The notes: generated from the letters alone by a model not told the origin. A stretch of DNA of 64,000 nt from Bacillota bacterium (GCA_023411795.1 JAEYOK010000027.1:62609-126608), one strand, 5' to 3'. Shown: positions 14,797 to 64,000, counted from the stretch's first letter. Numbers and translations are program-made.

Positions 14797-14825
14797 ATGA
14801 AAACATTAAAAAAGGAGAAATAATT

Positions 14826-15257
14826 ATGAAACCTTATAAAACTGGTTATATTGCGGGTGTTTTTGATTTATTTCACATAGGACACCTGAACCTTCTCCGA
14901 AAGGCAAAGGATAAATGTGAATACTTAATAGTGGGCATATTAACAGATGAACTGGTTCATCATTTTAAGAACAAGCTGCCTTTTATTAACCAGGATGACC
15001 GAAAAGAGATTGTACAGGCTATTAAATATGTTGATCAGACAGTTTTGGTTTCTTTTGATAATATCGATAAAATGAAAGCATGGGAATTATATCATTTTGA
15101 CTGCTTATTTTCCGGTGATGACTGGAGGAACGAGCCAAGCTGGGCTGCGGACAAAAAGAGACTGAATGAGGTTGGCTCAAACATCGAATTTTTCACATAT
15201 ACTCAAGGTATCAGCTCCACGCAAATTAGGAGCCAGATTCAAAATGAAAACAAATAG
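14826..15257 (+). CDS. tagD: Glycerol-3-phosphate cytidylyltransferase (TagD/TarD family)
   Basis: GVFDLFHIGHLNLLRKAK (HxGH motif) and YTQGISSTQIR match the TagD family, and the 143-aa size fits. RBS AGGAGA. Confidence 0.85.
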   Translation: MKPYKTGYIAGVFDLFHIGHLNLLRKAKDKCEYLIVGILTDELVHHFKNKLPFINQDDRKEIVQAIKYVDQTVLVSFDNIDKMKAWELYHFDCLFSGDDWRNEPSWAADKKRLNEVGSNIEFFTYTQGISSTQIRSQIQNENK

Positions 15258-15282
15258 AAAGATATGAATATTTTCTTCACTC

Positions 15283-16014
15283 TTATCCAAAGATCTGAGA
15301 GGTTTCTCTGGCATCAAGCATTGCCTTGAACATATAAAAATCTATCGCGGTCGTTACCTTTAGATTATCAGCAGAGCCTAATACCTGACGAAGTTTATGA
15401 CCGTAATAACTCATAAGTGACGCTGTATCAATAAAGTTCATTTTATTTTCTGAATTTGCTTTTTTATGAACGGCTAATACATCCTTAATATAAAAGCTCT
15501 GGGGTGCCTTTGCTACTCTTGCAGTATTACGATCAATAACCTGATCTATAAAACCTTCACTATTAACAGTGACAACCGTTTCATACTGATATGCGACAGT
15601 AACTCCGCTGCCATATTTTTTGACTGACTCGATATTTTGGGAAATCAGCTGTTGGTTTATCAAAGGCCTGACACCATCATGAAGCAGAACAATATCATCA
15701 TCCGAAAGGTCTACATTCTCTTCTATTTTTTTTAGTGCATTATAAATTGAACTCTGTACTGTTTCTCCGCCTTTAACAATCCACCTTACCTTTTTTATTC
15801 CAAAACGACATAATTCATTTTTAAGTGTTTCAATCCAGCTTTCAAGACATGCGACAACAATGAAATCAATATCTGGATGAAACTCAAAATGCTCTATCGT
15901 GTGTAATAAAATCGATTTGCCATGTAGCTCCAAAAATTGCTTCGGTTTGGTTTGACTATTCATGCGTACTCCGGTACCGCCTGCAAAAATAACTGCTATA
16001 TTCAATAGTGACAC
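15283..16014 (-). CDS. IspD/TarI-family cytidylyltransferase (CDP-ribitol / CDP-polyol synthase-like)
   Basis: N-terminal AVIFAGGTGVRM...KPKQFLELHGKSIL is typical of the IspD/TarI nucleotidyltransferase fold. GTG start. Convergent with tagD. Confidence 0.75.
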   Translation of the reverse strand: MSLLNIAVIFAGGTGVRMNSQTKPKQFLELHGKSILLHTIEHFEFHPDIDFIVVACLESWIETLKNELCRFGIKKVRWIVKGGETVQSSIYNALKKIEENVDLSDDDIVLLHDGVRPLINQQLISQNIESVKKYGSGVTVAYQYETVVTVNSEGFIDQVIDRNTARVAKAPQSFYIKDVLAVHKKANSENKMNFIDTASLMSYYGHKLRQVLGSADNLKVTTAIDFYMFKAMLDARETSQIFG

Positions 16015-16103
16015 AACCTCTCATTTTATTTAAGCAATTTCTCTATAATACTTATCGGTAAATTCATTAAAAAACTTATCCGGAACCATTTACGTAACCC
16101 GCT

Positions 16104-16135
16104 AAAAAGGCCCCGGATTTCATCTCCGGAGCCTT
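16104..16135 (-). terminator. Rho-independent terminator downstream of the MCP gene
   Basis: The minus strand reads AAGGCTCCGGAGATGAAATCCGGGGCCTTTTT, a GC-rich stem followed by a T-run. Confidence 0.7.
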
Positions 16136-16175
16136 ACATCTTTCTCGGTTAACAATACCATCCTAATCACAAAGT

Positions 16176-17903
16176 CTACATTTTAAACTTCGCAACAGTG
16201 CTTTGCATATCTTGAGCTAGTTGAGATAAATTTTCACTGGCTAATGTGAGCTCTTTTATTGATGCAACCTGCTGCACGGTCGATGAAGTCACTTCTTCGG
16301 TGGACGCAGAATTTTCCTCAGCAATTGCAGACAAGCTATCCAAAGTATTTAGAATAACATTTTTCATTTCAACCATTTCCTGTCCAGCTAAATTTAATTC
16401 TGAAATAGCTCGTTGAGATCCTTTCATTGCTTCATCAATCAATTTGTATTTTTCACTATTCTTTATGACACTTTCAGTCTGTTCCACTGTGATCTGGGAT
16501 ATCCTTTCCATAGTATTTACTGCATCTTGCGAATTCATTTGCAGTTCTTCAACTATTTGATCGATTGTTTTAATAGAATCGGTTGATTGTTCAGCCAACT
16601 TCTTAATTTGATCTGCCACGACTGCAAAGCCTCTTCCTGATTCTCCCGCTCTAGCAGCTTCTATAGCGGCATTTAAAGATAACATATTAGTCTGTTCTGC
16701 AATAGAAGCAATGATACTACTTGCCTGATTTATTTTTTGTGCGCTCTCGTATGTCTTTATTATGATATCATTAATAGTTTTGTTTGCTATATTGTTCTCG
16801 TCATTGATCTTAGTCAGTCTTTCGATTTCAGCAAGGCCTTCCCGGACAAATTCAGTAACATTAACAACGGCTTGGTTAATATTATTGGTCTGTTCGATAT
16901 CCTTATCGATAATATTCCCTAATAAGACCGCTTTTGAAGCCCCTGTTTCAGTATTTTGGGCTTGTTCTGACGCACCTTTTGCAATTTCGTCAACGGCTCT
17001 TGAAACTTCCTCTATGGCACTTGATGATTCCTGTGATGATGCAGTCATTTCCTGTGAGGTCGCGGCCAGCTGCTCAAATGATTCTTTAATCTGCGTGATA
17101 ACCCTTCGGAGGCTTTCTTTAATACTATTTAGCGATTGGGCTAAATCTCCGAGTTCGTCTTTTCTCGTTAGATCTTTTTCAGAAACTTCGATCCCGAGAT
17201 TTAGGCTTGCCAGTTGTTTGGAAAAATCCGCTGCATTTTTTATCGGTTTCGTAATACTACTTGACAATAATAACCCACTTACAAAAATAATCACAACTAA
17301 TAAGCCTATAATAATATTGCATGTTCTTTGGAACGTGGTAAGTCCTTCCTGTGCCAATTCAACACTGTAATCAACACCTACAAATCCGACAACAGCCCCT
17401 GCATCATTTTTGATAGGAAAATAAGTGCTTATAAGAGATCCCCACTTTTCATCTTCGAAGATTTCACTGTCTGTAAAAGCTTCACCGCTCCATGTCTGCT
17501 CATATTCCGGTATGGACTCTTCAGTGTCACCTATATGCGAAAAATCTTCATCAGTAGAGCCGTCTATCACATACATAAAGTCACCCTGATCGGTTTTTCT
17601 CATAGTATAAACATACTTTGCACCGCTTAATTCTCGAATCTTAATGAGATCATCTCTCATTTTGGTGTATGAAGGTGTATTCTCGTCTTCCATAGTTTCA
17701 AGCTTAACGAATTCATTTACATCTATTAGTTTACTTGCCTGCTCTGCTGTACTATAAGCTCTTATGGCAGTTTCCCTTAATAGCATTGATGAGGTTTGGT
17801 TGTATAATATTGCGATAAGCAAGAGGGTAAGAACTAATACAATAATTAGAAATAGCACTGTTATTCGCAATTTAATGCTTTTTTTCATAGATAAGTTTAT
17901 CAT
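16176..17903 (-). CDS. Methyl-accepting chemotaxis protein with N-terminal TM, Cache-like sensor, HAMP and MA signalling domain
   Basis: TM helix at aa 12-34 and a periplasmic-type sensor ending in [10 protein letters not shown] second TM follows, then a HAMP-like segment. The signalling hairpin [38 protein letters not shown] is conserved. Confidence 0.9.
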
Positions 17904-17992
17904 GAATAGTACCTCTTAAATTTGTATTTTTTTATCTATTTTATCATATTATAATAATCTACAATATAATATTTTTTCTGGCATTTATCTAC

Positions 17993-18020
17993 AAAAAAAG
18001 GCCCGATTTCCCGGAGCCTT
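17993..18020 (-). terminator. Rho-independent terminator downstream of csrA
   Basis: The minus strand reads AAGGCTCCGGGAAATCGGGCCTTTTTTT. Confidence 0.65.
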
Positions 18021-18052
18021 ATTACTCAATTATTACAGTATAACTTCAGTTC

Positions 18053-18307
18053 TTATCCTTGCGAAGGTGTATTTTTATCCTTCTTTTTGAACTTATCATT
18101 AAGAATTTGAATATTGGTTTGTTTTCCTGCAACCGCAGTAATATTCTCTTTTTTGATTTCTTCAAAAATCTCCTTACGATGGATAGTAACACTTTTAGGG
18201 GCATTGATGCCAATTCGCACCTGATCCCCTTGTATATCAATTATTGATAATTCAATATCATGGCCAATCATGAGAGATTGCCCTTTTTTTCTTGTCAGTA
18301 CGAGCAT
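18053..18307 (-). CDS. csrA: Carbon storage regulator CsrA (flagellar-type)
   Basis: MLVLTRKKGQSLMIGHDIELSIIDIQGDQVRIGINAPKSVTIHRKEI is the canonical CsrA sequence. RBS GAGGAGTG. Confidence 0.95.
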   Translation of the reverse strand: MLVLTRKKGQSLMIGHDIELSIIDIQGDQVRIGINAPKSVTIHRKEIFEEIKKENITAVAGKQTNIQILNDKFKKKDKNTPSQG

Positions 18308-18344
18308 TGTATCACTCCTCAGAAGCCCGTCAGAGCTTCAATTT

Positions 18345-18776
18345 TTAGTTTGCTTTTCCAAGATAGTACCGTATTGGAAGGCTGTCATTCTTTTGAATTA
18401 CCTGTTTACCAAGCTTTTTATCCATGTTTATCAGTATCGGTGCCTTTAGATTAACCCTTATTTCATTTATCTCTTCCGGAATAACTACAATAGTCAAACT
18501 TAAAACCCGGTTGGTGTCAGTAATTCCCAGTAGTTCTACATCCTCGTCGTCCACATCCACTCCATATCCATCATAAACCATAAACGGGTCTGTGACAACA
18601 AAACATAATTCCGGCATATCTATACTCTGTAGCCAGAAGAATGTAGCCTCACCATCATCATTCCCTATTAGCATGTATTTTTTACTGTTTTCGAATCCAG
18701 GTATACCTTCTGGGAAATATATAAAATCCTCTTCATTAAAATCAATAACTCCAAAATGTCCTGTTTCCAACTGCAT
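18345..18776 (-). CDS. fliW: Flagellar assembly factor FliW
   Basis: 143 aa with FPEGIPGFE...FFWLQS...FVVTDPF motifs. Sits in the conserved position between flgL and csrA. Confidence 0.9.
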   Translation of the reverse strand: MQLETGHFGVIDFNEEDFIYFPEGIPGFENSKKYMLIGNDDGEATFFWLQSIDMPELCFVVTDPFMVYDGYGVDVDDEDVELLGITDTNRVLSLTIVVIPEEINEIRVNLKAPILINMDKKLGKQVIQKNDSLPIRYYLGKAN

Positions 18777-18800
18777 ATTAAAACCTCCGTTTTATTTATC

Positions 18801-19709
18801 TTAACTTAAAAAATCCACCAAAGAGGGTTGGATAACCTTTGCGCCTGTTGCAAGAGAGGCCTGATAGACATTACTTTCATTCTGCAGGTTTATAATTGCT
18901 TCTGCGATATCAACATCTTCATTTTTACTCATTAACTTAGTGAAATTTACATTATCTTCATCAAGCCTGTCCGCAGTTAAATCGACCCGATTCATTCGAG
19001 CACCCAGACCTGCCCTTACGCGTAAAACATTACCCAGTTCATCATCCAAATCACCTAAAAGACTTGAAAGCTCACTTTTATCATCCGACTCCATTGCATT
19101 TATTACATCATCAAAGGTTTGTACAAACGAGCTTTTTGCTCCCGCTGTACCGGTGATTCCTTCATTAAAAAGGTCACTTCCCGGTACATTTATATTAATC
19201 TTGTCCCCAATGCCAATCTCAAACTTTATTTGCTCACCATTGGCGATATCAACATTAAAGGTACCATCATCATTCAGCAAAGGTTTATCGGTTTTAAAGC
19301 CCGAGAAAATGTATCGTCCTGCATATGTGGCATTGCCCAGACTGATTAACTGGGTTTTGAGCTGGGCTGCCTCCTCTTTGATCTTTAATAGGTCATCGGA
19401 GGTATTTGTTCCGTTAGCAGCCTGATTGGCAATTTCCTTCATTCTTTGAACCACATCGGTCATTTGACCCATGGTGGCTTCAGTAATATCCATCCAGGCC
19501 GTCGCATCATCTGTGTTGCGTTTATATTGAGATATTTCAGCCACATCAGTACGGAGCTTCAAAGCCTTGGATGCAACTATAGGATCATCTGACGGAAGGC
19601 TTATTTTCTTTCCTGATGCTAACTGATTCATGTATTTCTGGGTTTGGTTTAAATTGCCCGAAAGGCTTAGCATCATATTATTCATTAGCATATTGTTTGT
19701 GATTCGCAT
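18801..19709 (-). CDS. flgL: Flagellar hook-associated protein 3 FlgL
   Basis: MRITNNMLMNNMM... N-terminus and a flagellin-family C-terminus. The start at 19709 follows GGGGG; the longer track ORF to 19763 overlaps the flgK end. Confidence 0.85.
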   Translation of the reverse strand: MRITNNMLMNNMMLSLSGNLNQTQKYMNQLASGKKISLPSDDPIVASKALKLRTDVAEISQYKRNTDDATAWMDITEATMGQMTDVVQRMKEIANQAANGTNTSDDLLKIKEEAAQLKTQLISLGNATYAGRYIFSGFKTDKPLLNDDGTFNVDIANGEQIKFEIGIGDKININVPGSDLFNEGITGTAGAKSSFVQTFDDVINAMESDDKSELSSLLGDLDDELGNVLRVRAGLGARMNRVDLTADRLDEDNVNFTKLMSKNEDVDIAEAIINLQNESNVYQASLATGAKVIQPSLVDFLS

Positions 19710-31149: not shown

Positions 31150-31296
31150 TAAAAAATCCCTTCCAATGAAGAGATTACACAATACAAATACTCCTCATCT
31201 GTCAGGATTATCATCCTGCGGGAATTGGCACCATTGCTTTTTACAGCCGGTTGCCGGGTTTCATCGGGCCCAGTCCCTCTACCTCTCTTGATAAGG
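31150..31296 (-). promoter_or_regulatory. SAM-I (S-box) riboswitch with terminator, leader of metK
   Basis: The minus strand reads CTTATCAAGAGAGGTAGAGGGACTGGGCCCGATGAAACCCGGCAACCGGCTGTAAAAAGCAATGGTGCCAATTCCCGCAGGATGATAATCCTGACAGATGAG, matching the S-box core. It is followed by the hairpin TCTCTTCATTGGAAGGGATTTTTT. Confidence 0.9.
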
Positions 31297-31416
31297 TTCC
31301 TTATTCAACTCAAAAAAATGATAACATACAAATTTTTAGCCGTCAAGGACGTTGACAAACTTACAATTATGTAAATATAATTGATATAAGTAAATAACAG
31401 CAAGGGAGTTAATTGA

Positions 31417-39423: not shown

Positions 39424-39500
39424 GCGCCCGTAGCTCAGTCGGATAGAGCACAAGTTTCCTAAACTTGGTGTCGCACGTTCAATTCGTGTCGGGCGTACCA
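39424..39500 (+). tRNA. tRNA-Arg (anticodon CCT), CCA encoded
   Basis: GCGCCCGTAGCTCAGTCGGATAGAGCACAAGTTTCCTAAACTTGGTGTCGCACGTTCAATTCGTGTCGGGCGTACCA folds as a cloverleaf. The anticodon loop TTCCTAA gives CCT. The T-loop is GTTCAATTC, and G1-U72 is a wobble pair. Confidence 0.9.
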
Positions 39501-52474: not shown

Positions 52475-52660
52475 TGCTGCCTTCTCTTTTTTTTACTATT
52501 GTTTCTGCCCTATAAATTATACCAGAACTTTTTAATTGTTTATATCGAACTGATTAGTTCCTGATTAAAAAGTATCATATATTGCTGATCTTGACTTATT
52601 GTTTGAGATTGTTTGGAATATTTCTATATTTTATTGCAAATCTATAATAATCAGTATATA

Positions 52661-52683
52661 CTTATTAATATCATATTAATAAG
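52661..52683. promoter_or_regulatory. Perfect 11-1-11 palindrome just upstream of xylB start (candidate operator)
   Basis: CTTATTAATAT-c-ATATTAATAAG, 14 nt upstream of the xylB ATG. A possible TTGCAA-N17-TATACT promoter (52634-52662) overlaps it. Confidence 0.4.
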
Positions 52684-52696
52684 TTGGTGTTGGATT

Positions 52697-54229
52697 ATGG
52701 CTTTTCTACTTGGAATTGATATTGGTACATCTGGTACCAAAACTGTTCTTTTTGATGAATCCGGACATGTAATTGCTTCTGACACTCAGGAATACCCCCT
52801 TTACCAGCCTAAAAACGGATGGGCGGAGCAAAGCCCTGAAGACTGGTTTGATGCGACACAAAAATCAATAAAAAATGTACTGGGAAAAAGCCAAGTTGAC
52901 CCCAAGGCCATAAAAGGCGTCGGGCTATCAGGTCAAATGCATGGACTTGTGCTTTTAGATGCCGAGGATAAAGTTCTCAGAAAGTCTATAATATGGTGTG
53001 ACCAGCGCAGTACCCTTGAATGTGGCCAGATAACCTCTCTTGTCGGCTCAGAACGACTTATTGAAATAACAGCAAACCCTGCTTTACCCGCTTTTACAGC
53101 CTCAAAAGTAAAGTGGGTCATGAACAACGAGCCTGAGATTTACCAAAAAGCAAAAAGAATTTTACTTCCTAAAGATTACATAAGATTTTGTCTCACCGGT
53201 GAATATGCCACAGAGGTTTCTGATGCAAGCGGTATGCAGCTTCTTGATATATCAAAGAGACAGTGGAGCGATGAGGTTCTTACTAAATTAAGCATAGATA
53301 AATCCATGCTCGGAAAAGTCTATGAATCACAGGAAGTGACCGGTGTAATCAGTAAAAAAGCATCTCAATTAACCGGTCTTGCGCAAGGAACACCGGTTGT
53401 GGGAGGCGGCGGCGACCAAGCAGCAGGTGCAATTGGCAATGGCATTGTCAGACCAGGTATTATCTCATCAGTTATCGGTACATCAGGTGTTGTCTTTGCC
53501 TATACAGATAAAGTCCATATCGATCCAATGGGTCGAGTCCAAACATTCTGCCATGCTATTCCGAACACCTGGCATATCATGGGGGTTACACAGGCTGCAG
53601 GTTTATCTCTTCAATGGTTCAGAAACAACTTCTGTCATGATGAAATGTCAACAGCTGATTTAACCGGGAGAGATGTCTATGCACTGATGGATGAAGCGGC
53701 TGAAAAATCGGGTTTGGGTGCCGGTGGTTTAATATATCTTCCATATCTTATGGGTGAAAGAACTCCTCATCTTGATCCTGATTGCAGAGGTGTTTTCTTC
53801 GGTGTGTCTGCTAAGCATAGTAAACGTGACTTCATTCGTGCTGTGATGGAAGGTGTGGCCTTCAGCCTTAAAAATTGCCTCGACATCATTGATAAACTGG
53901 GCATCCCTATTAATGAAGTACGTGCTTCCGGAGGTGGCGGTCGAAGTCCTCTTTGGAGACAAATTCAGGCTGATCTTTTCGGAACACCCATAGCTACTGT
54001 CAATTCCAGTGAAGGACCGGCCCTTGGTGTTGCTTTACTGGCCGGAGTCGGTGCCGGTATATATAGCAGCGTACCTGAGGCCTGTGATCAAGCAGTCTGC
54101 ACAACAATGAAACTAGATTATGATACTGCTAACCATGAGTTATATAAGAATTCCTACAAGCTATATAACAGCATTTACCAGTCACTTAAAAAGGACTTTT
54201 CCTCCTTAGCAGTATTACAAAATCGTTAA
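52697..54229 (+). CDS. xylB: Xylulokinase
   Basis: MAFLLGIDIGTSGTKTVLF, GLSGQMHG and GGGDQAAGAIG are FGGY-kinase motifs. The start at 52697 is used; the track ORF extension is an AT-rich leader. Confidence 0.9.
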   Translation: MAFLLGIDIGTSGTKTVLFDESGHVIASDTQEYPLYQPKNGWAEQSPEDWFDATQKSIKNVLGKSQVDPKAIKGVGLSGQMHGLVLLDAEDKVLRKSIIWCDQRSTLECGQITSLVGSERLIEITANPALPAFTASKVKWVMNNEPEIYQKAKRILLPKDYIRFCLTGEYATEVSDASGMQLLDISKRQWSDEVLTKLSIDKSMLGKVYESQEVTGVISKKASQLTGLAQGTPVVGGGGDQAAGAIGNGIVRPGIISSVIGTSGVVFAYTDKVHIDPMGRVQTFCHAIPNTWHIMGVTQAAGLSLQWFRNNFCHDEMSTADLTGRDVYALMDEAAEKSGLGAGGLIYLPYLMGERTPHLDPDCRGVFFGVSAKHSKRDFIRAVMEGVAFSLKNCLDIIDKLGIPINEVRASGGGGRSPLWRQIQADLFGTPIATVNSSEGPALGVALLAGVGAGIYSSVPEACDQAVCTTMKLDYDTANHELYKNSYKLYNSIYQSLKKDFSSLAVLQNR

Positions 54230-54239
54230 GAGGTAAGCA

Positions 54240-55424
54240 ATGACAACAGGCCGAATCGGAAACAATAAATACTTAAAAAAATTAAACAAAACAATTATCC
54301 TTGACCTGATCAGAACAAATAAAGGCATTTCGCGAAAAGCACTGGCTGATATGACCGGGCTTTCCCCGACAGCAACAGGCCAAATAGTACGTGCACTATT
54401 AGAAGAAGAGTATATATGCGAAGTCGGAGAAGATGATTCGTCAGGTGGAAGAAGGCCTATGATGCTTGAGCTTAATCCCGCTTCGTACTATGCATTTGGG
54501 TTTGATATCGATTCAAAATATGTCTATACAGTACTTTTGGATATTACGGGGAAAACTTGCTACGAAAAAAAAGAAGAATTTGAAAACAACTTAACCCCGG
54601 AAGAGTTTATCACTGTTGTTTCAAAAACATATGAACAGATTACTAAGAAACTTAAACTGAGGAATGATCGTATTATTGGCGCAGGCATATCCATACCGGG
54701 AATGCTTGAACTCCCTACACAAAAAATATTACTCGCACCTAACCTAGGTTGGTCCCAGGTTGATATTAAAAGCAGATTGACTGACCTTCTGAATATTCCG
54801 GTCCTTATAGATAACGAAGCTATCTGTTCATCAAATTGTGAGGATTGGCTGGGAACCTACAGGGATAGAGAAAATTTTATATGTATTAATATTGATTCAG
54901 GTATTGGTGCCGGTCTATTTGTTAGAGGTGCAATATACAAAGGTCACTCCGGGAGTGCCGGTGAAATAGGACACATCCCAATGGAAGGAAATAGCATCAG
55001 GTGTAAATGCGGAAAAATCGGGTGTCTAGAAACCATTTCATCGGTTAATGCAATGGTTTCTAGGTATAAGCAAATCAAAGACATAGATCACGATACAAAA
55101 GGTTATGAAGCCACTTTGGATTGTTTGATTAATGGTGCTGAGGCAGGTGACACAGCATGTATGAGTATTTTTAAAGATGCTGCAGTGAGTCTTGGGAAGG
55201 TTATCAGTTACTTAATCAATATATTTAACCCCCAGGAGATTATTCTGGGTAAGAAGTTTTCCCAATACTCTGGTTTTATGCTTGATGAAATCAGACAGAC
55301 AGTTAAAAAGACAGCCTTGGCCTACCCACTTTGCAATTGCCAAGTCCTTGCATCTACTTTCGGAGAGGATTCATCAGCTTTAGGAGCTGCCACTTTACCC
55401 ATTAGAAAACTCTTCGGACATTGA
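54240..55424 (+). CDS. xylR: ROK-family transcriptional regulator (XylR-like)
   Basis: N-terminal wHTH (ISRKALADMTGLSPTATGQIVRAL). ROK zinc motif GHIPMEGNSIRCKCGKIGCLE. Sits between xylB and xylA. Confidence 0.8.
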   Translation: MTTGRIGNNKYLKKLNKTIILDLIRTNKGISRKALADMTGLSPTATGQIVRALLEEEYICEVGEDDSSGGRRPMMLELNPASYYAFGFDIDSKYVYTVLLDITGKTCYEKKEEFENNLTPEEFITVVSKTYEQITKKLKLRNDRIIGAGISIPGMLELPTQKILLAPNLGWSQVDIKSRLTDLLNIPVLIDNEAICSSNCEDWLGTYRDRENFICINIDSGIGAGLFVRGAIYKGHSGSAGEIGHIPMEGNSIRCKCGKIGCLETISSVNAMVSRYKQIKDIDHDTKGYEATLDCLINGAEAGDTACMSIFKDAAVSLGKVISYLINIFNPQEIILGKKFSQYSGFMLDEIRQTVKKTALAYPLCNCQVLASTFGEDSSALGAATLPIRKLFGH

Positions 55425-55469
55425 CCCAGAAATATAAAATAAAATCTCATAACAGAGGAGGTTTTTGAT

Positions 55470-56795
55470 ATGTCTGAATTTTTTAAAGGAATCGGGAAGA
55501 TTCCTTACGAAGGAGCAGAGACCGATAATCCGCTTGCTTTCAGGTACTACAACCCCGATGAATTGATTGATGGTAAGCCGCTCAAGGATCATTTACGGTA
55601 TGCCGTTTCTTACTGGCATACCTTTCAGGGGCGTGGCGGCGATCTCTTCGGGCTTTCAGGAGCAGCAGAAAGATCCTGGGATACTATAAAAGATCCTATG
55701 GATTTAGCCTATGCAAAAATCGAAGCTAACTTTGAATTCTGCGAAAAGCTTGGCGTTCCATTCTTTTGTTTCCATGACAGGGATATAGCACCTGAGGCAG
55801 ATACCTTGGCTGAGACTAATAAGCGGTTGGATGAAATCGTTTCAAGAATCAAAGCACGTATGGAAAATAGTCCTGTAAAGCTACTATGGGGCACTACTAA
55901 CGCTTTCGGTCACAGGAGATTTACCCATGGTGCTGCCACCTCTAATCATGCCGATGTTTTTGCCTACGCAGCTTCCCAGGTAAAAAAGGCAATGGAAATA
56001 ACGCTAGAATTAGGCGGGCAAAACTACGTATTCTGGGGTGGTCGAGAAGGTTATGAAACACTCCTTAATACTGATATGCAGCTGGAACTTGATAATCTGG
56101 CACGCTTTTTATCAATGGCTGTGGATTATGCAAAGGAAATCGGATTTACCGGCCAGTTCCTCATTGAACCAAAGCCCAAGGAACCCACCAAGCACCAATA
56201 TGATTTTGATGCGGCAACTGTTTTGGGCTTCTTAAAGCAAAATAATTTGGATCCCTATTTCAAGCTGAATATCGAAGCTAATCATGCTACTCTGGCACAG
56301 CATACTTTCCAGCACGACCTTAACGTAGCCCGCATAAATAATGCACTTGGCAGTATAGATGCAAATCAGGGTGATCCACTCCTTGGATGGGATACAGACC
56401 AGTTCCCTACAAACCTATATGACACAACTCTGGCTATGTTTGAAGTAATCAAGATGGGCGGCTTTAACAAAGGCGGACTCAATTTTGACGCAAAGACAAG
56501 AAGAGCTTCCTTTGAGCCTGTTGATCTTTTCTATGGACATATAGCAGGCATGGATGCCTTTGCCAAAGGCTTCAAGATTGCCTACAAACTAGTCCAGGAC
56601 GGTGTTTTCGATAAGTTTGTTAAGGAACGTTATAGCAGCTATACACAAGGTATTGGAAAGGATATCGTTGATGGAGAAGTTGGATTCAAACAACTTGAGG
56701 CATATACTTTGAAAAACGGTGAGCCAAAGCTTTCATCAGGTCGCCAAGAATTACTGGAATCAATCCTTAACAAATACATATTAGAAACTAAGTGA
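55470..56795 (+). CDS. xylA: Xylose isomerase (class II)
   Basis: 441 aa with [32 protein letters not shown] and [11 protein letters not shown] motifs. Confidence 0.95.
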
Positions 56796-57040
56796 TTTGT
56801 ATGTTTTGCAAGACCCTTTACGTCACACCGTGCAAAAACTAATCACTTTAATAAATTAATGCAGTTATAGCGGCTGTTGCCTGCAACGATTTAGCGCTCC
56901 GGGTCAACATCCTGTTTCTAGTCGCGCTCGCTCCGCATCCATGCTTCGCTTTAAATCGTACGCAAGCAAACCGCTTAATAAGAATAAATATTATATGGTA
57001 AAAGAGTTTTTGCGCAGTCTGACGTAGTAAGTTCTTTCTT

Positions 57041-58018
57041 TCAATCGCAGCGAAGGCATGGAAAATACCCATTTTCGGCTGCTTCAAAGGCATCGGAAAA
57101 GTGCATTATGCTATCCTTGTTAAAGCTGGGGTCTGATGAGACTGTATTTAAAAGATAATCACAATCAGTACGACAATAGGATAAGAGCCCCTGATAGGTA
57201 TAACCTATTATTGGGGCTTTTCTTATTACCCGGGCTCCTCCAAGGGCATAGTGTTGATAGCTTTTACCTGATAAAACAGGAAAGCCTTGAGCAATGACTA
57301 GTATACCCTCGTCAGTCGGTGCTCTCTTCCAGTCCGAGTCCTCAATTGACGGAAATTCGAGCCTTACATATAGACTTTTCCCTGATGCCCATTGATTATA
57401 TTGATTCATATATAAAGTGATTTCTTCCTGGATAGAATTCTTTATAGCTGCAATCCTCAAGTTTTCAAAGGTTTGATCGTTATTAAAGAATGAAATTCTG
57501 TCTTTATATTCTTTATATTCGCCTTGAGAAGCAATTTTATCAACTATGTCATAAACATAGACTTTGTTTTCAAGGGTATATCTGATACAGTACCTGTCTG
57601 ATAAAAGCTCGCCGGCATAATACTGTATAGGGAACCAGATATGCTTAACCTCAGTCTGCCCGGTAGTGTTTTTGTATGGATTTAATGCATATAGAGAAAA
57701 CCCCTCCCTCTCTAAAAAGATCAATACAGGAACACATGCGTCTATCCTGGCTTTTCTTGAGGAACTGGTATAGGAATTAAATGAGTAATAAAGGGTATCA
57801 AAGAAGGCTTCCGTTGCAGTTTCCTTAGCCTTCGACATTTCACTGAATCCTTTTTGGGAAAGAATCAAAGCCGCATCCTGAATTGCGTTATCTATAATAT
57901 TGTCATAATAAGTTCGCAGCCTTTGATCTTCTATAGCCGTTTTTGAGGATTGTGAGCTTAAAAAAAGGAAGGGGGAAATAATTATGGTAAAAATAATGGC
58001 TAGACTAGTAAGCTTCAT
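57041..58018 (-). CDS. Hypothetical bitopic protein, last gene of Tad-like operon (325 aa)
   Basis: Single N-terminal hydrophobic helix LAIIFTIIISPFLFL. RBS GGGGGA. 14-nt overlap with the upstream gene. C-terminal CLRC. Confidence 0.55.
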   Translation of the reverse strand: MKLTSLAIIFTIIISPFLFLSSQSSKTAIEDQRLRTYYDNIIDNAIQDAALILSQKGFSEMSKAKETATEAFFDTLYYSFNSYTSSSRKARIDACVPVLIFLEREGFSLYALNPYKNTTGQTEVKHIWFPIQYYAGELLSDRYCIRYTLENKVYVYDIVDKIASQGEYKEYKDRISFFNNDQTFENLRIAAIKNSIQEEITLYMNQYNQWASGKSLYVRLEFPSIEDSDWKRAPTDEGILVIAQGFPVLSGKSYQHYALGGARVIRKAPIIGYTYQGLLSYCRTDCDYLLNTVSSDPSFNKDSIMHFSDAFEAAENGYFPCLRCD

Positions 58019-58556
58019 TCCGCACCATTCCCCCTGACCTTACAAATATGCTTGGCGCACTCGTATTTGTAAACAGTATCATATCCCGAATAGCAACGGC
58101 CATGGTCTTCCCTTTGTTCTTAACTTCGACAAAAAAAAGATCACCCATACCCATTTTGTAACGCCGTGATTTATCAAGCGGCGATGCTGTATTTATTGGA
58201 AAAAGCACCCCCATTATCTCTTCTTCGCCTATGTTTACATGGATAATTTCATGCTCTCCGGTAAAAGCCAACGTACCACCTGTTTGCTTGTATATCGGGG
58301 AAACAGATCTCTTTACGTGGGATAATCTAATTTGGTATAAGTTTCCCGTCGAATTTATTCGGTTTATAAAATCAGAATACTGGTTGGGTGTGATAAAACC
58401 CGTATCCCTGCAAATATCAGCGAACCGATTACACTCAGTGAGTACAACATTGTATGCGATATCATCCTGTCTTTCCAGCATGTTCAATAAAGGCACAAGA
58501 AACAATAATATTGCGCATAGCAAAAAGGCAAGGACCTTCCAAAGGGTCTTTTCCAT
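58005..58556 (-). CDS. Hypothetical bitopic protein of Tad-like operon (183 aa)
   Basis: N-terminal helix VLAFLLCAILLFLVPLL. Strong RBS AGGAGGGG. Confidence 0.55.
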   Translation of the reverse strand: MEKTLWKVLAFLLCAILLFLVPLLNMLERQDDIAYNVVLTECNRFADICRDTGFITPNQYSDFINRINSTGNLYQIRLSHVKRSVSPIYKQTGGTLAFTGEHEIIHVNIGEEEIMGVLFPINTASPLDKSRRYKMGMGDLFFVEVKNKGKTMAVAIRDMILFTNTSAPSIFVRSGGMVRNEAY

Positions 58557-58570
58557 AACCCCTCCTGATT

Positions 58571-58990
58571 TTATCTTGCTGAATAAATGACTTTGACTAT
58601 ATTACCTTGAGAATCAGTCTCGTATTTCACATCGTAATAGTCTTGTGGATCTATGTCGTTTAATTCCACAAGCTCGGCTTTTTTGCCATCAATCCATATT
58701 TCAAGCTCTTTTGCAGAAATTACATCACCGGCTCCATAAAGGGCTGAAAGTTCTGTGGCCTCCTGAATACCTTTTGCCTCTATCACCCTATGTATAACTT
58801 CGTTTCCTGTTAAACGAGACTGAACTTTTCCCTCAAAGATACCCACCATCGCATCTTTATCGTTAATATCCATGCTCTGATTTAAATAATCCATGTGCCG
58901 GTTATAGCTTGAGAAGAATACAGTAAATGCTGATGCAATTAATAGAACACCTATTGATATAGATAGAATCTTTTCAATATTACTATTCAT
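58571..58990 (-). CDS. Hypothetical bitopic protein of Tad-like operon (139 aa)
   Basis: N-terminal helix ILSISIGVLLIASAFTVFF. Tightly packed behind the upstream gene. Confidence 0.5.
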   Translation of the reverse strand: MNSNIEKILSISIGVLLIASAFTVFFSSYNRHMDYLNQSMDINDKDAMVGIFEGKVQSRLTGNEVIHRVIEAKGIQEATELSALYGAGDVISAKELEIWIDGKKAELVELNDIDPQDYYDVKYETDSQGNIVKVIYSAR

Positions 58991-58992
58991 AG

Positions 58993-59580
58993 CTATTCCA
59001 GTTGGGCAAAAATGACACCCCTGATTTTTAGGTTATCATCATAAATCAGATGAGAAATAAACTTCCCAGACGGATTTATATATTTTGAAGTAAGATTCGG
59101 GTTTTCCGCATCCCTTCTTGCCGCATCCATGACTGTTTTACTTTGGCTTGTAAGAAGGTTATTGCTTCCTGATGCCAGTGACATTATAATGCATCGGTTA
59201 TCCACCTTCAATGTACCATTTTTACCGGATATGTAATCAGTGTAACTTGCTTGCAAGCCCGTATTTGTATTACTAGACGGATCAAGATTAACCTGATTTC
59301 CTCCATTATTGCCTAAGGTGGCTACCATTATTATTACTTCACCGCTTCTTCCGGAAAAGGTTCCCAGGGCAGACAATACATCGTCTCCCTTAACCTCTTT
59401 TCCGTCGAACATTCTAAATTCCTCTTCGGTCAAATTCTGGGCTATGGACCCGACTTTGTCATTTGCGACACTGCTAACATCTTTCATTCCTCCAAAAATA
59501 CTTAGGCCTATTGTCACCACTGCTATAAAAAGCAGTATTGAAACGCCTAACCAGAGCGCCTTAGATAGATTACCTTCCAT
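58993..59580 (-). CDS. Hypothetical bitopic, pilin-sized protein of Tad-like operon (195 aa)
   Basis: N-terminal helix ALWLGVSILLFIAVVTIGLSIF, followed by a Gly/Asn/Ser/Thr-rich soluble domain. Strong RBS GGGAGG. Confidence 0.55.
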   Translation of the reverse strand: MEGNLSKALWLGVSILLFIAVVTIGLSIFGGMKDVSSVANDKVGSIAQNLTEEEFRMFDGKEVKGDDVLSALGTFSGRSGEVIIMVATLGNNGGNQVNLDPSSNTNTGLQASYTDYISGKNGTLKVDNRCIIMSLASGSNNLLTSQSKTVMDAARRDAENPNLTSKYINPSGKFISHLIYDDNLKIRGVIFAQLE

Positions 59581-59610
59581 AATCTCTACCTCCCAGTGGT
59601 TAATATATTT

Positions 59611-61644
59611 TCAAATCTGCATCAATTGCTTATAAAACGCCGAAATACTCTCCATCCCCGATACTATCATCGGTATTATCAGATATAGTACAATTAGCGC
59701 ATAAACAGGCATAAAGCCTATCATGTTGCCAAGATTCTTCTTTCTTTCTACTATTCTCTCATTGCTTTCTTTGCGACTTTCATGGTTAAAGCTCATCTCA
59801 TTTTCCAACTCTTCAAAAGCTCTTGCTACATCCAAATCCTCACTGGCGAGCTGAAGGTTATCTATTATTGATAAAAAAGGTCCAAATCCAACTTCAGATT
59901 TAAGCTGTTCCAATGCCTCGTACGAACCCGAGCTGAAGTTTTGTATACATTTTTGTAAAGGGACTTTAAAATGTAACGAAAAGGTTTCCATCCATTCCAG
60001 AATTTCTTGAACATGAACTCGGCTCATATGCATGAGCATTAAAATAATAGTTTGAAATTGAGAAACCTCATCCTCCATATCTATTTTTCTCGCATTGGCC
60101 ATGAAGCGGAGGCCCATGATAGGAGCATTATAACCAAGGACAGATAACAGGAAGCACACAAGCAGCTGCCACCACCAGAATATGTTATCTGAAAGCTTTT
60201 GCATCTTTAAACTAATTCTTTCAGCGACAATATTCATTTCCTGCTGGTAAATTGAACCCTCTTTTTTAATCTCTTCAAGGATTTTATCTTTGTCACTATT
60301 CTTGTCAAGTCTTAGGATAATCGTTCGGTCCATATCAGTTATGGTTTGCAGTTTTTTATATTCTTCCTCTGAGAGCTTTCCACCCAGATATCCCTCCGGT
60401 GTCTGCGGTTGATAAAGAATGACATACCTCGTATAACACATAAGGCCAATAAACAAGCAAATACCAAATATGAAAGACAGTGTTGCCATAATAAGCCTGC
60501 GGGTATAAAGAGTTTTTAAATTAAGCGGTGCCATAGCATTCTTAATTAATTGAGTCAAAGAATTCTTCTTTGACGTGTATCCTTTTGGAATCAACCTGTC
60601 CACCAACTTATGAAGAAACTTATCATATATCTGTTGCTCAAAGGATTTTTTTATAAAACCGGTATTAAAAGGCCTGTCAAACCGTTGAAGCCGACGTAGT
60701 GTTATATAGGATATAATTGATACTATAATTGTAGCTATACCAAGAATTATCCCTATCTTACTGGTATAAAAACTTTCCAGAGGTGTAAAGCTGTTTGCAG
60801 CCCAGTTTCTTAGCGGTTTGAGGAAAAACATCGGTAAGAGGGAGATCGTATTAAGGCTTTTCAATGCGTATTTTAACTTTTCACGTTTATAAATCTCTGC
60901 CTTGATTTCACTGCCAAGATAGGTAATACAACGTATAAAAACCGAGCTTTCCTTTACTTGAGTGTCACCATATTCCTTTGTTATATAGATGACCCCGGCA
61001 AGCATCTTAAAGTACTTATTTGGAGCAGTTTCATAGTATTTTTCCAGCTCTTCATCAGCATCTTTCGATGTTAGGATATCGTTAATTCTTTCAGCATGTA
61101 TATAAACCTCATAGGTTTCGCGCTTGTTAAGCAGGCTACAAGCTTCCAGATTGGCATCCTCCACAGATTTTTGTTCATAGTATTTATGTCTAAGTAACTC
61201 AAGATAACTTATTTGCTGTCTCAATAGCTTATTTTGAAGGTTGTTTATAAAAAGTTCTATTACTGTATCCCCAATAAAAAAGAGCAGAACAGTAAGCAAA
61301 ACCAGCATCAGTAAATCCTTTGTTATTACCCAAAAGGCTACAACTACGGTCAAATATAAAACTACTGTCGTGAGAAGCAAAACAACAGCTCGTTTTTGTA
61401 TAGTTTTCACATCTGATACAGTATGTATCTCCAGCCTTTTTCTTATGCTTATAAGCAGATTGTTTAATAAAGGAATAGATGATATTTTACTGTATAACGT
61501 AAGAATGAATGTAAAGTTTTTGGATTTGCTTTCACTTAGCTGCTTTCCACTTCTTTTTTGTCTTTTTGCCAACCCTATATTAGCAATTATCATCAGAACG
61601 GCAAGAACAAGACATATTAAACCGATAATTGTGTATTTATTCAT
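59611..61644 (-). CDS. Polytopic membrane protein with C-terminal T2SS-F (TadB/TadC)-like domain (677 aa)
   Basis: Multiple TM segments. The C-terminal ~180 aa (…GSYEALEQL…FLSIIDNLQLASE…KNLGNMIGFMPVYALIVLYLIIP) fit the GspF/TadC platform pattern. ATGA overlap with the ATPase gene. Confidence 0.6.
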   Translation of the reverse strand: MNKYTIIGLICLVLAVLMIIANIGLAKRQKRSGKQLSESKSKNFTFILTLYSKISSIPLLNNLLISIRKRLEIHTVSDVKTIQKRAVVLLLTTVVLYLTVVVAFWVITKDLLMLVLLTVLLFFIGDTVIELFINNLQNKLLRQQISYLELLRHKYYEQKSVEDANLEACSLLNKRETYEVYIHAERINDILTSKDADEELEKYYETAPNKYFKMLAGVIYITKEYGDTQVKESSVFIRCITYLGSEIKAEIYKREKLKYALKSLNTISLLPMFFLKPLRNWAANSFTPLESFYTSKIGIILGIATIIVSIISYITLRRLQRFDRPFNTGFIKKSFEQQIYDKFLHKLVDRLIPKGYTSKKNSLTQLIKNAMAPLNLKTLYTRRLIMATLSFIFGICLFIGLMCYTRYVILYQPQTPEGYLGGKLSEEEYKKLQTITDMDRTIILRLDKNSDKDKILEEIKKEGSIYQQEMNIVAERISLKMQKLSDNIFWWWQLLVCFLLSVLGYNAPIMGLRFMANARKIDMEDEVSQFQTIILMLMHMSRVHVQEILEWMETFSLHFKVPLQKCIQNFSSGSYEALEQLKSEVGFGPFLSIIDNLQLASEDLDVARAFEELENEMSFNHESRKESNERIVERKKNLGNMIGFMPVYALIVLYLIIPMIVSGMESISAFYKQLMQI

Positions 61645-63548
61645 ATCGCGACCTCTTTCTGCGTGTTAAAGAATTTGTCACAATAAGCATCAAAATCCTG
61701 AACATCCTTTTCAGTCATAGCTTTCTTCATCTTATCGGTTCTATCTGATGTTATGGTATTCACAACAACATAGCGGCCATCCTTGAATTCAATTATATTC
61801 CGGGGTTCAAAAATCCTATTGTCGCTCATCTTCTTAAAATATTCAGCCGAGGTATTCATGAACGACTTAGCTTTATCAGCCAGGTCCTCCTTTTCCCTAA
61901 ATTCCTGCGGCAGGGGATAATCAGGCAGCTCAACTATTTCAGTAATCCTTTCTATATACCGTCTTCCCTGATAATCCCTCACTAAATGAATATCAAAATC
62001 CAAAACTGAGACAACCTGCTGCTCAGCTATTTTTTCATTATTGAACATCTCACACTTAAGCAGAGAATTTCTGAGGGAATAGACCAAATCCCGCGTAGTT
62101 TTTGCGTGGTGCGTGAACAAGGTAAAAAGAGAGGCAACCTGAGACATCTGTATCATCCATGCAGCAACCGGATCGGTTGCCACCTCCCCCAATATGTTCA
62201 CACTACCGTCGGTCTTTTTTTGGATATCCAGACCTTGCTGACCCGATATGTTCTCTGTCTCCCTGAATGATAAAATGTTTCTACCCGGATACAGCCTTCT
62301 TAAATTAAGTTCAAAAGCCATCTCCTGAATACGAAGAGTCAATGACGCATAGATATGCTTTATCATTGCCATAAGCAAAGTTGTTTTGCCAGAACCCTGC
62401 TGGCCTGTAACAGATGTTATCATGCCACCTTTTACTATGTATTTTATTAATTCTATTGGCAAATGAGCATTCTCATCCTGTATGAGCATTTCGAGTGTTA
62501 CATTTTTAATGAAAAACTTACGTACAAAGAAAGCCCATGACTCGGAAAAGGGCGGCCTTACCACTAAAATACGGCTCCCATCCTTCATTTCGTTGACCCG
62601 GTAACCTGTTGATTCTGAGAGTTGTCCTCCGCGATTATATCTATATATTATCTGACAAACCCTTTTTAGCTCACTTTCGGACTCAAAGCCGAGAAAATCT
62701 AATTTAATAGACTTCCCCTTATAAAATATCCAGATGCTCTCATAGTTTCTTTTAATCCTTCCATTCGCTTTTGTGTTATCTGAAAAGCTATCGATTGTAT
62801 CCAATGACTCCCTAAAATCTAGCGGATTTATCGGTAAATCCTTTGTGGCTCCCGACACCCCACCGGATACTCCGTCAATATTCATATCCCTTATTTCATC
62901 AATAACACCTAGACCTTTGTACCGCTCGTAAACAGCCTGGGTAATTATTTCAAGGCGATCATCGTTGCTAAGTACAAGACCCATTCGATCAAAGATTTCA
63001 TCAATATCCTTCTTAGTAATAGTAAAAGCTAATTCTCCGTCTTCAGTTTCCATTAGCTTGTCCAACCCATTAGTATCAATAAAATGTGTCAGGGCATCAA
63101 AACCATATTCTTTTTTTAGCATATGAAGAATAATTGCAAATTTATCTCTTACCGGCAGAAGATAGGTATTGTTAAATGGAATAATTGTGTTAATTTTGTC
63201 CTGTGGTATATAGGAAAATAAAATGTCATAGATAAATGACTTTACAAACTGTTTATCCTCAACCGAGCCATGCATGCATACCTTAAGTGCCTTTTTAAGT
63301 TCTGCTCTTTTGTTAGCCTGCTTCCTAAACTCGACTTCATTAAGTCCCAGCTCAAATAAATTAGTTCTGGTAATCTCGTCTATGGAATCCTTCACATAAT
63401 CAATAAGAGAAGGTATTGAAAACAAAAGTGGATCAGAACCTTCATCAACCTCTCTCTGGTGCCTGGATGAAATAAAGAAAAAATAAACAGCAATGCCCAG
63501 CCCAAAAATAATCAATATAATAAAGACTTGGTTCATAAGTTCAGGCAA
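61641..63548 (-). CDS. Divergent CpaF/TadA (VirB11-family) secretion ATPase with N-terminal TM helix
   Basis: Walker A TGQQGSGKTT, then RIQEMAFEL (Asp-box position), NILGEVAT (Walker B position) and LFTHHAKT (His-box position). The N-terminal helix is VFIILIIFGLGIAVYFFFI. The start is uncertain: TTG at 63548 after GGGGAG, ATG at 63536, or GTG at 63578. Confidence 0.7.
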   Translation of the reverse strand: MPELMNQVFIILIIFGLGIAVYFFFISSRHQREVDEGSDPLLFSIPSLIDYVKDSIDEITRTNLFELGLNEVEFRKQANKRAELKKALKVCMHGSVEDKQFVKSFIYDILFSYIPQDKINTIIPFNNTYLLPVRDKFAIILHMLKKEYGFDALTHFIDTNGLDKLMETEDGELAFTITKKDIDEIFDRMGLVLSNDDRLEIITQAVYERYKGLGVIDEIRDMNIDGVSGGVSGATKDLPINPLDFRESLDTIDSFSDNTKANGRIKRNYESIWIFYKGKSIKLDFLGFESESELKRVCQIIYRYNRGGQLSESTGYRVNEMKDGSRILVVRPPFSESWAFFVRKFFIKNVTLEMLIQDENAHLPIELIKYIVKGGMITSVTGQQGSGKTTLLMAMIKHIYASLTLRIQEMAFELNLRRLYPGRNILSFRETENISGQQGLDIQKKTDGSVNILGEVATDPVAAWMIQMSQVASLFTLFTHHAKTTRDLVYSLRNSLLKCEMFNNEKIAEQQVVSVLDFDIHLVRDYQGRRYIERITEIVELPDYPLPQEFREKEDLADKAKSFMNTSAEYFKKMSDNRIFEPRNIIEFKDGRYVVVNTITSDRTDKMKKAMTEKDVQDFDAYCDKFFNTQKEVAI

Positions 63549-63999
63549 GCTTATTACTCCCCTCAACAATATATTCACACAACCGGTTAAATGAGTTTAT
63601 CAATATTTTTTCCTCAGAATCTTTTGCATTCTGATTAAAAGCTATATACTCAAATACCCTGCCAGTATTTAGGGCATCCATGAAGTGTACGCTATTCGGA
63701 ATCTCAAAGATTGAAGCCTTGTCGATTCCATATCTTCTGGCTATATTTCCAGAAGTCATATTCCCCCCTTTTTCGAATCGCGATAAGACATATGCTGACC
63801 GCTTCTGTTTCAGAAAAGGATATTCTCTTTGATATACTGCTAAATCCTCTAAAAGAAAAGAATTCTGGTTTATACAAAAAATAATGATATCCGAGCTCTC
63901 TAAAATTTTAAGGTTATTGTTTTCCTTTAACCCGCTGTGAACATCCATCAAAACCAAATCATAAAATTCTTTTGAGCAGTTAATTATACTTAATATCAC
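63541..63999 (-). CDS. C-terminal part of a ParA/MinD-like (CpaE/TadZ-like) ATPase; N-terminus outside window
   Basis: ORF is open to the window edge. DLVLMDVHSG resembles the Walker B region of the MinD/ParA class. Its position directly upstream of the CpaF-like ATPase is typical of Tad loci. Confidence 0.5.
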   Translation of the reverse strand: MILSIINCSKEFYDLVLMDVHSGLKENNNLKILESSDIIIFCINQNSFLLEDLAVYQREYPFLKQKRSAYVLSRFEKGGNMTSGNIARRYGIDKASIFEIPNSVHFMDALNTGRVFEYIAFNQNAKDSEEKILINSFNRLCEYIVEGSNKLA

Positions 64000-64000
64000 A

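Follow-up and report, generated by a model that had tools for sequence, protein, structure and literature searches.

How could a Tad-type machine build a filament if its genes include no Flp pilin, no prepilin peptidase and no TadE-, TadF- or TadG-type protein? This question is raised by an operon at positions 57041-63999 of a 64,000-nucleotide stretch of DNA from a Bacillota bacterium (GCA_023411795.1 JAEYOK010000027.1:62609-126608), which was analysed over its full length and is called the window here. To our knowledge, all characterised type IV filament systems, namely pili, type II secretion, competence pili, archaella and Tad, need a class III signal peptide and a prepilin peptidase. On balance, we favour the view that the operon encodes a Bacillota-specific, Tad-derived (type IVc-like) filament or pseudopilus machine with a new class of leaderless subunits.

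A divergent Tad core in a ten-gene operon

Seven abutting open reading frames (ORFs), all on the minus strand, span 57041-63999 in the ORF calls on the window. They are the last seven of the ten genes in an operon, as evidenced by the 10.6-kb contig L001, which was recovered by exact look-up of the 677-aa protein and is identical to the window over the shared part. Upstream of the gene for a 269-aa protein and in the same direction, L001 carries genes for a kinase, an SAF protein and a 219-aa protein. The full operon order is kinase-TadZ fusion, SAF/CpaB-like protein, 219-aa protein, TadZ-like protein, ATPase, 677-aa membrane protein, and four bitopic proteins designated classes A, A', B and C. 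An ATPase scan of one genome per species gave 55 loci. Family alignments were made from the operon loci and compared by HHalign in local mode with reference alignments from five canonical Tad loci (L059 and L061-L064); the global mode agreed with the local-mode matches to the Tad core.

The ATPase gene (61641..63578, minus strand) encodes 645 aa from a GTG codon, or 635 aa from the probable start, an ATG at 63548. The family matched CpaF (HHalign 99.4%), and a search of PDB sequences returned CpaF only (8rkd, E = 1.2e-9, residues 288-552). The best NCBIfam match was TIGR03819 (TadA), at E = 1.6e-8 and 34 bits against a cut-off of 373, and Pfam T2SSE was matched at E = 1e-3 (18.1 against a cut-off of 24.9). 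The Walker A motif TGxQGSGKTT, the glutamate of the GEV motif and the THHA box were invariant among 53 orthologues. Every orthologue inspected carried an N-terminal transmembrane (TM) helix, which is unusual in the CpaF/TadA-type family. The divergent, anchored CpaF-like ATPase proposed in an initial annotation of the window is supported.

The 677-aa polytopic membrane protein (59611..61644, minus strand) has about seven TM segments. Residues 1-340 aligned end-to-end with a combined TadB+TadC profile (HHalign 91.5%, E = 8.6e-7), and the separate TadB and TadC profiles gave only 35-60%. Pfam and NCBIfam assigned nothing to the protein, Pfam T2SSF was not detected in any of the 30 family members scanned, the family profile had no match among PDB sequences at E <= 10, and no internal duplication was detected in the protein when one was sought. 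It had initially been described as a TadB/C-like platform; of its two halves, the N-terminal one is weakly TadB/C-like and the C-terminal one has no detectable relatives.

The gene at the end of the window (63541..63999, minus strand) continues past position 64000, so that the window holds the C-terminal 152 aa of the 269-aa protein; the full gene lies at 3166-3975 of L001. Pfam and NCBIfam gave no match to the protein, and HHalign related it to CpaE (94.4% in local mode, 94-96% across modes). The P-loop, WSNMHGQ(G/A)(G/A)TS, lacks both lysines in 53 orthologues, and hence the protein is probably not an ATPase. The earlier label of a ParA-like ATPase therefore survives as to the TadZ/CpaE-like fold of the ParA/MinD type, but not as to ATPase function.

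The first operon gene encodes a Hanks-type Ser/Thr kinase of 476 aa (Pfam Pkinase, E = 6e-47) that is extended at its C-terminus. The C-terminal domain matched both CpaE (HHalign 95.5% in local mode, 95-97% across modes) and the 269-aa protein (95.2%). At L024-L026, L046, L054 and L055, the TadZ-like C-terminal domain has its own gene, of about 211 aa (e.g. L024 5447-7514); in the Paenibacillus polymyxa plasmid copy, the first gene is weakly similar to the ParA-type CbiA family (below cut-off) and has no kinase domain. The SAF protein (314 aa; L001, beyond the window) is bitopic with an N-terminal TM helix. It scored 35.5 bits against Pfam SAF (cut-off 21) and also matched FlgA weakly; TIGR03177 (CpaB) was matched below cut-off (E = 2.6e-5), and HHalign aligned the SAF region with CpaB (90.8%). 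No relative of the 219-aa protein was detectable by Pfam, NCBIfam or HHalign. The initial annotation had warned that genes beyond position 64000 might change the picture; inspection of that sequence revealed the 219-aa, SAF/CpaB-like and kinase-TadZ genes and no flp, tadV or rcpA.

Flp, prepilin peptidase and TadE are not detected at the operon loci

Hidden Markov models (HMMs) for TadV, Flp and TadE were run on the ORFs of the window and of L001-L058, 9,459 in all with a minimum length of 30 aa, the locus searches covering about 10 kb on each side of the operon. The Flp search gave no Flp-like ORF for the window or for 57 loci (best hmmsearch E = 2.1). Neither the window nor the 57 loci yielded an A24/TadV peptidase (best E = 0.39) with an HMM that was built from three proteobacterial sequences and has limited sensitivity. 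For TadE, nothing scored below E = 0.1 in the window or L001-L058. Together with Pfam and NCBIfam, these searches of ORFs of at least 30 aa confirmed that Flp, prepilin peptidase and TadE/F/G are missing from the window, as had been noticed at the outset.

The four bitopic families reached at most 0.4% against Flp and at most 3.3% against Flp, TadE and TadG in HHalign comparisons. The positive controls gave 83.8% for Flp with TadE, 94.5% for TadE with TadG and 98.9% for TadB with TadC. The contrast between at most 3.3% for the bitopic proteins and 84-95% for the controls supports the original reading, in which the operon is an atypical one of the Tad/type IVc-like kind and its subunits belong to no described class. 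Judged by its sequence, the operon shares ancestry with Tad/type IVc systems, and three of their defining features, Flp, TadV and TadE/F/G, are missing from it.

Four bitopic proteins begin at the conserved helix

Four genes, all on the minus strand, follow the platform gene. The first encodes a 195-aa leaderless pilin-like protein (class A, 58993..59580), a candidate major subunit; its 139-aa paralogue (class A', 58571..58990; HHalign 96-97% between the two families) is a candidate minor subunit. They are followed by a 183-aa protein (class B, 58005..58556), a candidate minor or adaptor subunit, and by the product of the operon's last gene, a 325-aa protein with a C-terminal Cys motif (class C, 57041..58018), a candidate tip or anchor subunit. 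The single N-terminal hydrophobic segment that had been reported for each of the four proteins was reproduced. Pfam and NCBIfam assigned no family to any of them; the 325-aa protein matched an Ada Zn-binding domain weakly (E = 0.003, below cut-off).

The N-terminal 20-30 residues are the best-conserved stretch in all four families, and the signature M-x-x-N-h-x-K-x-L is common to three of the four at a fixed distance from Met1. In class A, the N-terminus M-[DE]-G-N-[LI]-S-K-A-L-W-L-G-V is nearly invariant (N4 100%, A8 and L9 94%). The signature is present in class A' (M1 100%, N4 95%, K7 90%, L9 100%), and the 47 class B orthologues conserve K7 (91%), an invariant Pro22 (100%) and an R29-Q30-D31-D32 motif after the helix (80-87%). 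The class C N-terminus reads M-[KR]-[IL]-T-[SDN]-[LFY]-A (M1 100%, T4 84%, F10 90%, P16 95%) and begins at Met1 in 44 of 44 orthologues. The 195-aa gene has a ribosome-binding site (RBS), GGGAGG, 8 nt upstream of its ATG, and AGGAGGGG precedes the ATG of the 183-aa gene. The start codons of the subunit genes are considered fixed because of these strong RBSs and an in-frame stop upstream. Since the ORF calls begin at the first start codon past a stop, no longer N-terminus is possible for the subunit proteins. They start at the conserved helix Met1, without the charged, Gly-ending leader of a pilin.

The AlphaFold2 (AF2) model of the 195-aa protein, based on a 75-sequence alignment, has a mean predicted local distance difference test (pLDDT) score of 82.8 and shows a continuous helix at residues 3-56 followed by an alpha/beta domain. 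That of the 325-aa protein (45-sequence alignment, pLDDT 80.8) shows a continuous helix at residues 3-55 and then a helical/beta domain. As modelled, both proteins combine a pilin-type N-terminal helix of about 50 residues with a globular head and so have the 'lollipop' shape that is general among type IV pilins; the predicted heads match no solved pilin. The profiles of the two families gave nothing meaningful against PDB sequences.

The class A family is large, with 921 representatives (50%-identity clusters) in a profile search at E <= 1e-3. In almost every one of the 150 matches listed, the top-scoring alignment begins at residue 15 of the protein or before. A Pfam scan of 10 distant relatives assigned no family to them. 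Conserved blocks occur at both ends of the sampled relatives (...YD..V.G..V... and ...YINP.G.F...I.G..F.Q), and the centre is variable, often Ser/Thr/Gly-rich, or a long C-terminal extension is present (10 sampled members). Class A genes are duplicated in tandem in L041 and L033, and whole A-A'-B sets are repeated at L032 15233-21717, L033 15639-19434 and L039 15217-18776. In these three Clostridial loci, the class B N-terminal module is fused to C-terminal regions of 348-1244 aa with Ig-like, PKD or dockerin-type matches, and the fusion to such large modules implies that the C-terminus of class B lies outside the cell. At L048, a gene for a 1498-aa Ig-repeat/coiled-coil protein (14689-19185) is inserted among the subunit genes. 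Class C orthologues of the anaerobic Clostridia carry CX3C...CX2C at residues 282-324, with the spacing of an Ada-like zinc site, and those of Paenibacillus, Tumebacillus and Neobacillus have only two Cys (one pair). One possibility is that a metal site in the former takes the place of a disulphide in the latter, within a domain outside the cell.

Gene junctions and surroundings of the operon in the window

The initial annotation had described seven co-directional genes with overlapping or abutting junctions, and all overlaps and coordinates were reproduced. A 4-nt ATGA overlap at 61641-61644 joins the ATPase and 677-aa genes; an 8-nt overlap lies at 63541-63548, given an ATPase start at the publicly called ATG, and a 14-nt overlap at 58005-58018 joins the 183-aa and 325-aa genes. 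The remaining junction gaps are 2-30 nt. An 81-aa ORF (56848-57093, minus strand) that overlaps the 3' end of the 325-aa gene is probably spurious. A consensus scan revealed no terminator-like site downstream of the operon. Directly downstream on the opposite strand (52613-56795, plus strand), three genes resemble xylulokinase (FGGY), a ROK-family regulator and xylose isomerase, as read by eye from the translations. Elsewhere in the window, the Rfam scan found an S-adenosylmethionine (SAM) riboswitch (RF00162, 91.7 bits, 31192-31297, minus strand) and a tRNA gene (39424-39497, plus strand). At about 14000-16000, the GC skew changes sign, the cumulative skew peaks and the gene orientation turns from plus to minus, which could be a terminus-like convergence or a simple strand switch.

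The operon is widespread in Bacillota and its flanks differ

The closest relatives are uncultured 'Clostridiaceae', Ruminiclostridium and Acetivibrionales metagenome-assembled genomes (MAGs). The hosts of the 55 loci comprise Acetivibrionales/Ruminiclostridium-like MAGs, Thermoclostridium caenicola, Lachnospiraceae, Vallitaleaceae, many Paenibacillus, Tumebacillus and Neobacillus, and the family occurs in soil, gut and anaerobic-digester Bacillota. According to ORF tables and BLAST labels, the order kinase, SAF, (219 aa), TadZ-like, ATPase, platform, A, A', B, C is kept in essentially all loci. ATPase relatives that align with 80% or more of the query were found on 34 large Bacillota plasmids, and the same architecture was seen in all three plasmid loci inspected (P. 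polymyxa pPPM1a, Lysinibacillus sphaericus pBsph and Clostridium argentinense pRSJ17_1). The plasmid annotations read 'SAF domain-containing protein', 'CpaF' and 'ATPase, T2SS/T4P/T4SS family', and otherwise 'hypothetical protein'. Conservation in about 55 independent genomes and in the inspected plasmid loci indicates that the gene order is more than chance.

The flanks are unrelated among loci. In P. alvei, they encode an HAD hydrolase, Fpg, an AP endonuclease, a methyltransferase and a chromate transporter; in close Clostridial relatives, hisI/hisE-like and other housekeeping genes lie upstream of the kinase (translations read by eye). Since the flanks differ in this way, the module is autonomous, and we conclude that the ten-gene module is real and horizontally mobile. 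Genetically tractable hosts include P. polymyxa and L. sphaericus, and plasmids of C. argentinense and C. botulinum are also among the carriers.

A recurrent neighbour is a gene pair encoding a cell-wall-binding protein (about 400 aa) and a protein of about 1000-1100 aa, which adjoins the operon in 6 of the 55 genome loci and in all three inspected plasmids. The cell-wall-binding proteins carry SLH, 'stalk' or cell-wall repeats, and the hosts are Bacilli, one Clostridial MAG and the three plasmids. The pair lies at L057 16563-20709, L058 15566-19939, L065 14983-19060 and L003 1593-6083, and was also seen downstream of the operon in L023, L030, L037, L041 and L047. DUF5704 homology was confirmed for the large proteins of the pair, the 962-aa hypothetical protein of C. 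argentinense (L065) not being among them. On two plasmids, a GGDEF gene follows the pair. The window does not contain the DUF5704 pair, which may serve the machine as a partner, a cargo or an adhesin. A distant ATPase of the T2SS/T4P family (468 aa) is encoded on pCLK of C. botulinum A3 Loch Maree (L060 7984-14447) and is 24% identical to the ATPase of the window across about half its length. It is followed by hypothetical genes, two of medium size and several that are very small, and the site may be another poorly annotated Firmicute Tad-like locus.

A proposed machine with leaderless subunits

The machine that we envisage would work as follows. The kinase-TadZ fusion, placed in the cytoplasm, the degenerate TadZ-like protein and the 219-aa protein might form a scaffold or regulatory hub, a role proposed from the TadZ homology, and the kinase-TadZ fusion suggests phospho-regulation of assembly. 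The CpaF-like ATPase, a putative hexamer with intact catalytic motifs, would be tethered by its own N-terminal helix and would power the machine via the 677-aa polytopic protein with its weakly TadB/C-like N-terminal half. The bitopic SAF/CpaB-like protein, in which the domain itself was found, could serve as an envelope-spanning collar. The likely substrates are the four downstream bitopic proteins, whose helices start at Met1, with class A as the putative major subunit accompanied by A', B and C. This role of class A is argued for by the position of its gene in the flp slot, by the strong RBS, by the variable centre and by the duplications. The ATPase-platform pair would extract the subunits from the membrane and stack their helices into a surface fibre or short pseudopilus, in which classes B and C could be tip, adaptor or anchor subunits. 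If translation starts where a mature pilin would start, the prepilin-peptidase step would be needless, and the absence of a peptidase gene from the examined flanks of every locus may be due to the leaderless nature of the subunits. A role in adhesion, aggregation or biofilm formation is likely, given the accessory genes in relatives (the cell-wall-binding/DUF5704 pair and GGDEF). We suggest, as a possibility held tentatively, that the system is an undescribed branch of type IV filaments with 'born mature' subunits, no peptidase, a membrane-tethered CpaF-like motor and gating by the kinase-TadZ fusion.

Several observations weigh against the filament reading. Polymerisation of the bitopic proteins into a fibre is a step that we infer. 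The Foldseek and profile comparisons suggested in the initial annotation gave no known fold (two models, PDB) and no TadE/G family for the bitopic proteins; in Foldseek, the 195-aa and 325-aa models had no fold match at E <= 1e-3 in the PDB, so that the term 'pilin-like' refers to the long N-terminal helix and to where the gene lies, and not to a shared fold. Confidence in the 195-aa model drops to a pLDDT of only 58-59 at residues 31-50. Glu5 is absent in classes A and B, and class C has S, D or N at position 5. The class A helix of Paenibacillus and Tumebacillus ends in '[VI]SA-QE', which could be a signal-peptidase I site. Residues 341-677 of the platform protein reached at most 4% against the TadB/C profile, and no T2SSF similarity is detectable in this C-terminal half. 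A Flp pilin and a peptidase could be encoded elsewhere, beyond the flanks of about 10 kb. A bitopic layout of a helix and an alpha/beta domain also fits non-polymerising assembly factors such as PilN, PilO and GspM.

These last two points lead to the strongest of the rival explanations, in which the four bitopic proteins are fixed assembly or alignment parts, analogous to PilN/PilO, GspL/M or TadG, with the genes for Flp and TadV in another part of the genome. It ranks first among the rivals because polymerisation is inferred only and no pilin fold was recovered by Foldseek, and the 'lollipop' models with helix and alpha/beta domain fit the PilN/PilO type. The same Foldseek comparison, however, gave no match to PilN, PilO or GspM either. 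Our inspection reaches some 10 kb to either side of a locus, and the MSH loci provide a precedent for a type IV filament that borrows its peptidase from elsewhere (PMC6668835); against this, no Flp- or peptidase-like ORF occurred in the 57 loci, the inspected plasmid copies included. The conserved ends, variable, often Ser/Thr/Gly-rich centre and tandem duplicates of class A are typical of an exposed fibre subunit, and in class B the N-terminal modules are joined to large domains of extracellular type, neither of which suits fixed parts of this kind. We regard the explanation as unlikely.

Somewhat less probable again is a secretion or surface-display device, in which a short pseudopilus made of the four proteins pushes or positions large surface proteins across the thick wall in a type II-like manner and no long adhesive pilus is formed. 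The four subunit classes resemble a set of major and minor pseudopilins, and the gene pair beside the operon in 6 of 55 loci and three inspected plasmids and the Ig-repeat protein of L048 also speak for it. The DUF5704 pair, however, is absent from most loci and from the window, its large proteins bear ordinary Sec-type signal peptides (by inspection), and the ATPase is nearest to CpaF, not GspE. A plasmid DNA-transfer or mating apparatus of a Tad-type, conjugation-associated kind is very improbable. It is brought to mind by the full name of TIGR03819, 'TadA family conjugal transfer-associated ATPase', but the score of this match is far below its cut-off; and the operon does occur on large plasmids, adjoining a replication gene in pBsph, but most copies are chromosomal, amid housekeeping genes. 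All 12 plasmids with a class A gene were typed as non-mobilizable, and no relaxase, coupling protein or VirB4 was found in the loci inspected. Two other candidates were set aside. A defence system was dropped, as the PADLOC matches were to generic kinase domains only, and a sporulation channel of the SpoIIIA type was rejected because the SAF/CpaB, CpaE and CpaF affinities indicate Tad and the gene content differs.

If the filament reading is correct, a widespread Tad-motor machine with leaderless subunits would test the universality of prepilin processing and would add a new fold class of subunits. Gram-positive spore-formers could here have an organelle for adhesion or biofilm formation that was overlooked. 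The system is common, most of its genes are annotated as 'hypothetical', and the hypothesis is directly testable.

Comparison with known systems

Full-text literature searches found no description of the operon family. Many of the Tad systems reported as new by Denise et al. (2019) are from Bacilli and Clostridia, and operon detail of the kind given here is not part of that account. Garrett et al. (2024) describe Tad genes beside T7SSg/h loci in Acetivibrio and Paenibacillus (PMC11217815); no T7SS genes were found within 6-10 kb upstream in the loci that we examined. A review of pXO16-type conjugation offered nothing pertinent. In Paenibacillus NAIST15-1, two Flp/Tad-like loci are described whose pilin and inner-membrane core genes were unidentifiable, and deletion mutants of both loci are listed as assayed for hard-agar motility (PMC5072692).

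Canonical Tad/Flp loci (Aggregatibacter, Caulobacter, Rhizobium and others; L059, L061, L062 and L064) share with the operon a CpaF ATPase, TadZ, SAF and, with weaker similarity, a TadB/C-like module in the same relative order, and the genes are translationally coupled in both. In contrast to them, the operon has no Flp with its G/XXXXEY motif, no TadV, TadE/F/G, secretin or TadD. Its ATPase is longer by about 250 residues and has a TM helix at the N-terminus, and one 677-aa membrane protein stands where the canonical loci encode separate TadB and TadC. The TadZ has a dead P-loop, and a second TadZ copy is fused to a Ser/Thr kinase. Unlike the canonical proteins, the core proteins here fall below curated Pfam and NCBIfam cut-offs, with the exception of Pfam SAF, which is exceeded. 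Four traits set the operon apart: the ATPase is anchored by a TM helix, the platform is fused or oversized, a dead TadZ-like protein occurs together with a kinase-TadZ fusion, and the four subunit families are new.

The monoderm Tad locus of Microbacterium pYJNG (L063) is Gram-positive and lacks a secretin, as here. Its order SAF-TadZ-TadA-TadB-TadC-Flp-TadE-...-TadG-related matches that of the operon, with the 195-aa gene in the flp slot. L063 has T2SSF proteins, a 64-aa Flp, genes of the TadE/TadG family and a prepilin peptidase about 6 kb downstream, whereas none of these is detectable here. We take the tad locus of Bifidobacterium breve to be another monoderm example.

Like type IV pilins and minor pilins, the candidate subunits are bitopic and are predicted to consist of a best-conserved N-terminal helix of about 53 residues and a globular domain. 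Helix-breaking Gly or Pro residues stand at fixed positions, e.g. Pro22 of class B; a Pro22 is canonical in type IVa pilins. Modular forms with large C-terminal domains and, in aerobes, a C-terminal Cys pair are further likenesses. The subunits differ from type IV pilins in having no leader, Gly(-1), Glu5 or N-methylation motif, and they match no solved pilin in sequence or fold.

Another comparison is offered by the Kil apparatus of Myxococcus xanthus, a diderm system. Its Tad core was repurposed with lineage-specific, specialised subunits, a precedent for Tad machines that diversified in function (PMC8460266, PMC12075869), and Kil is reported to polymerise a pilus of the major pilin KilP (PMC12075869).

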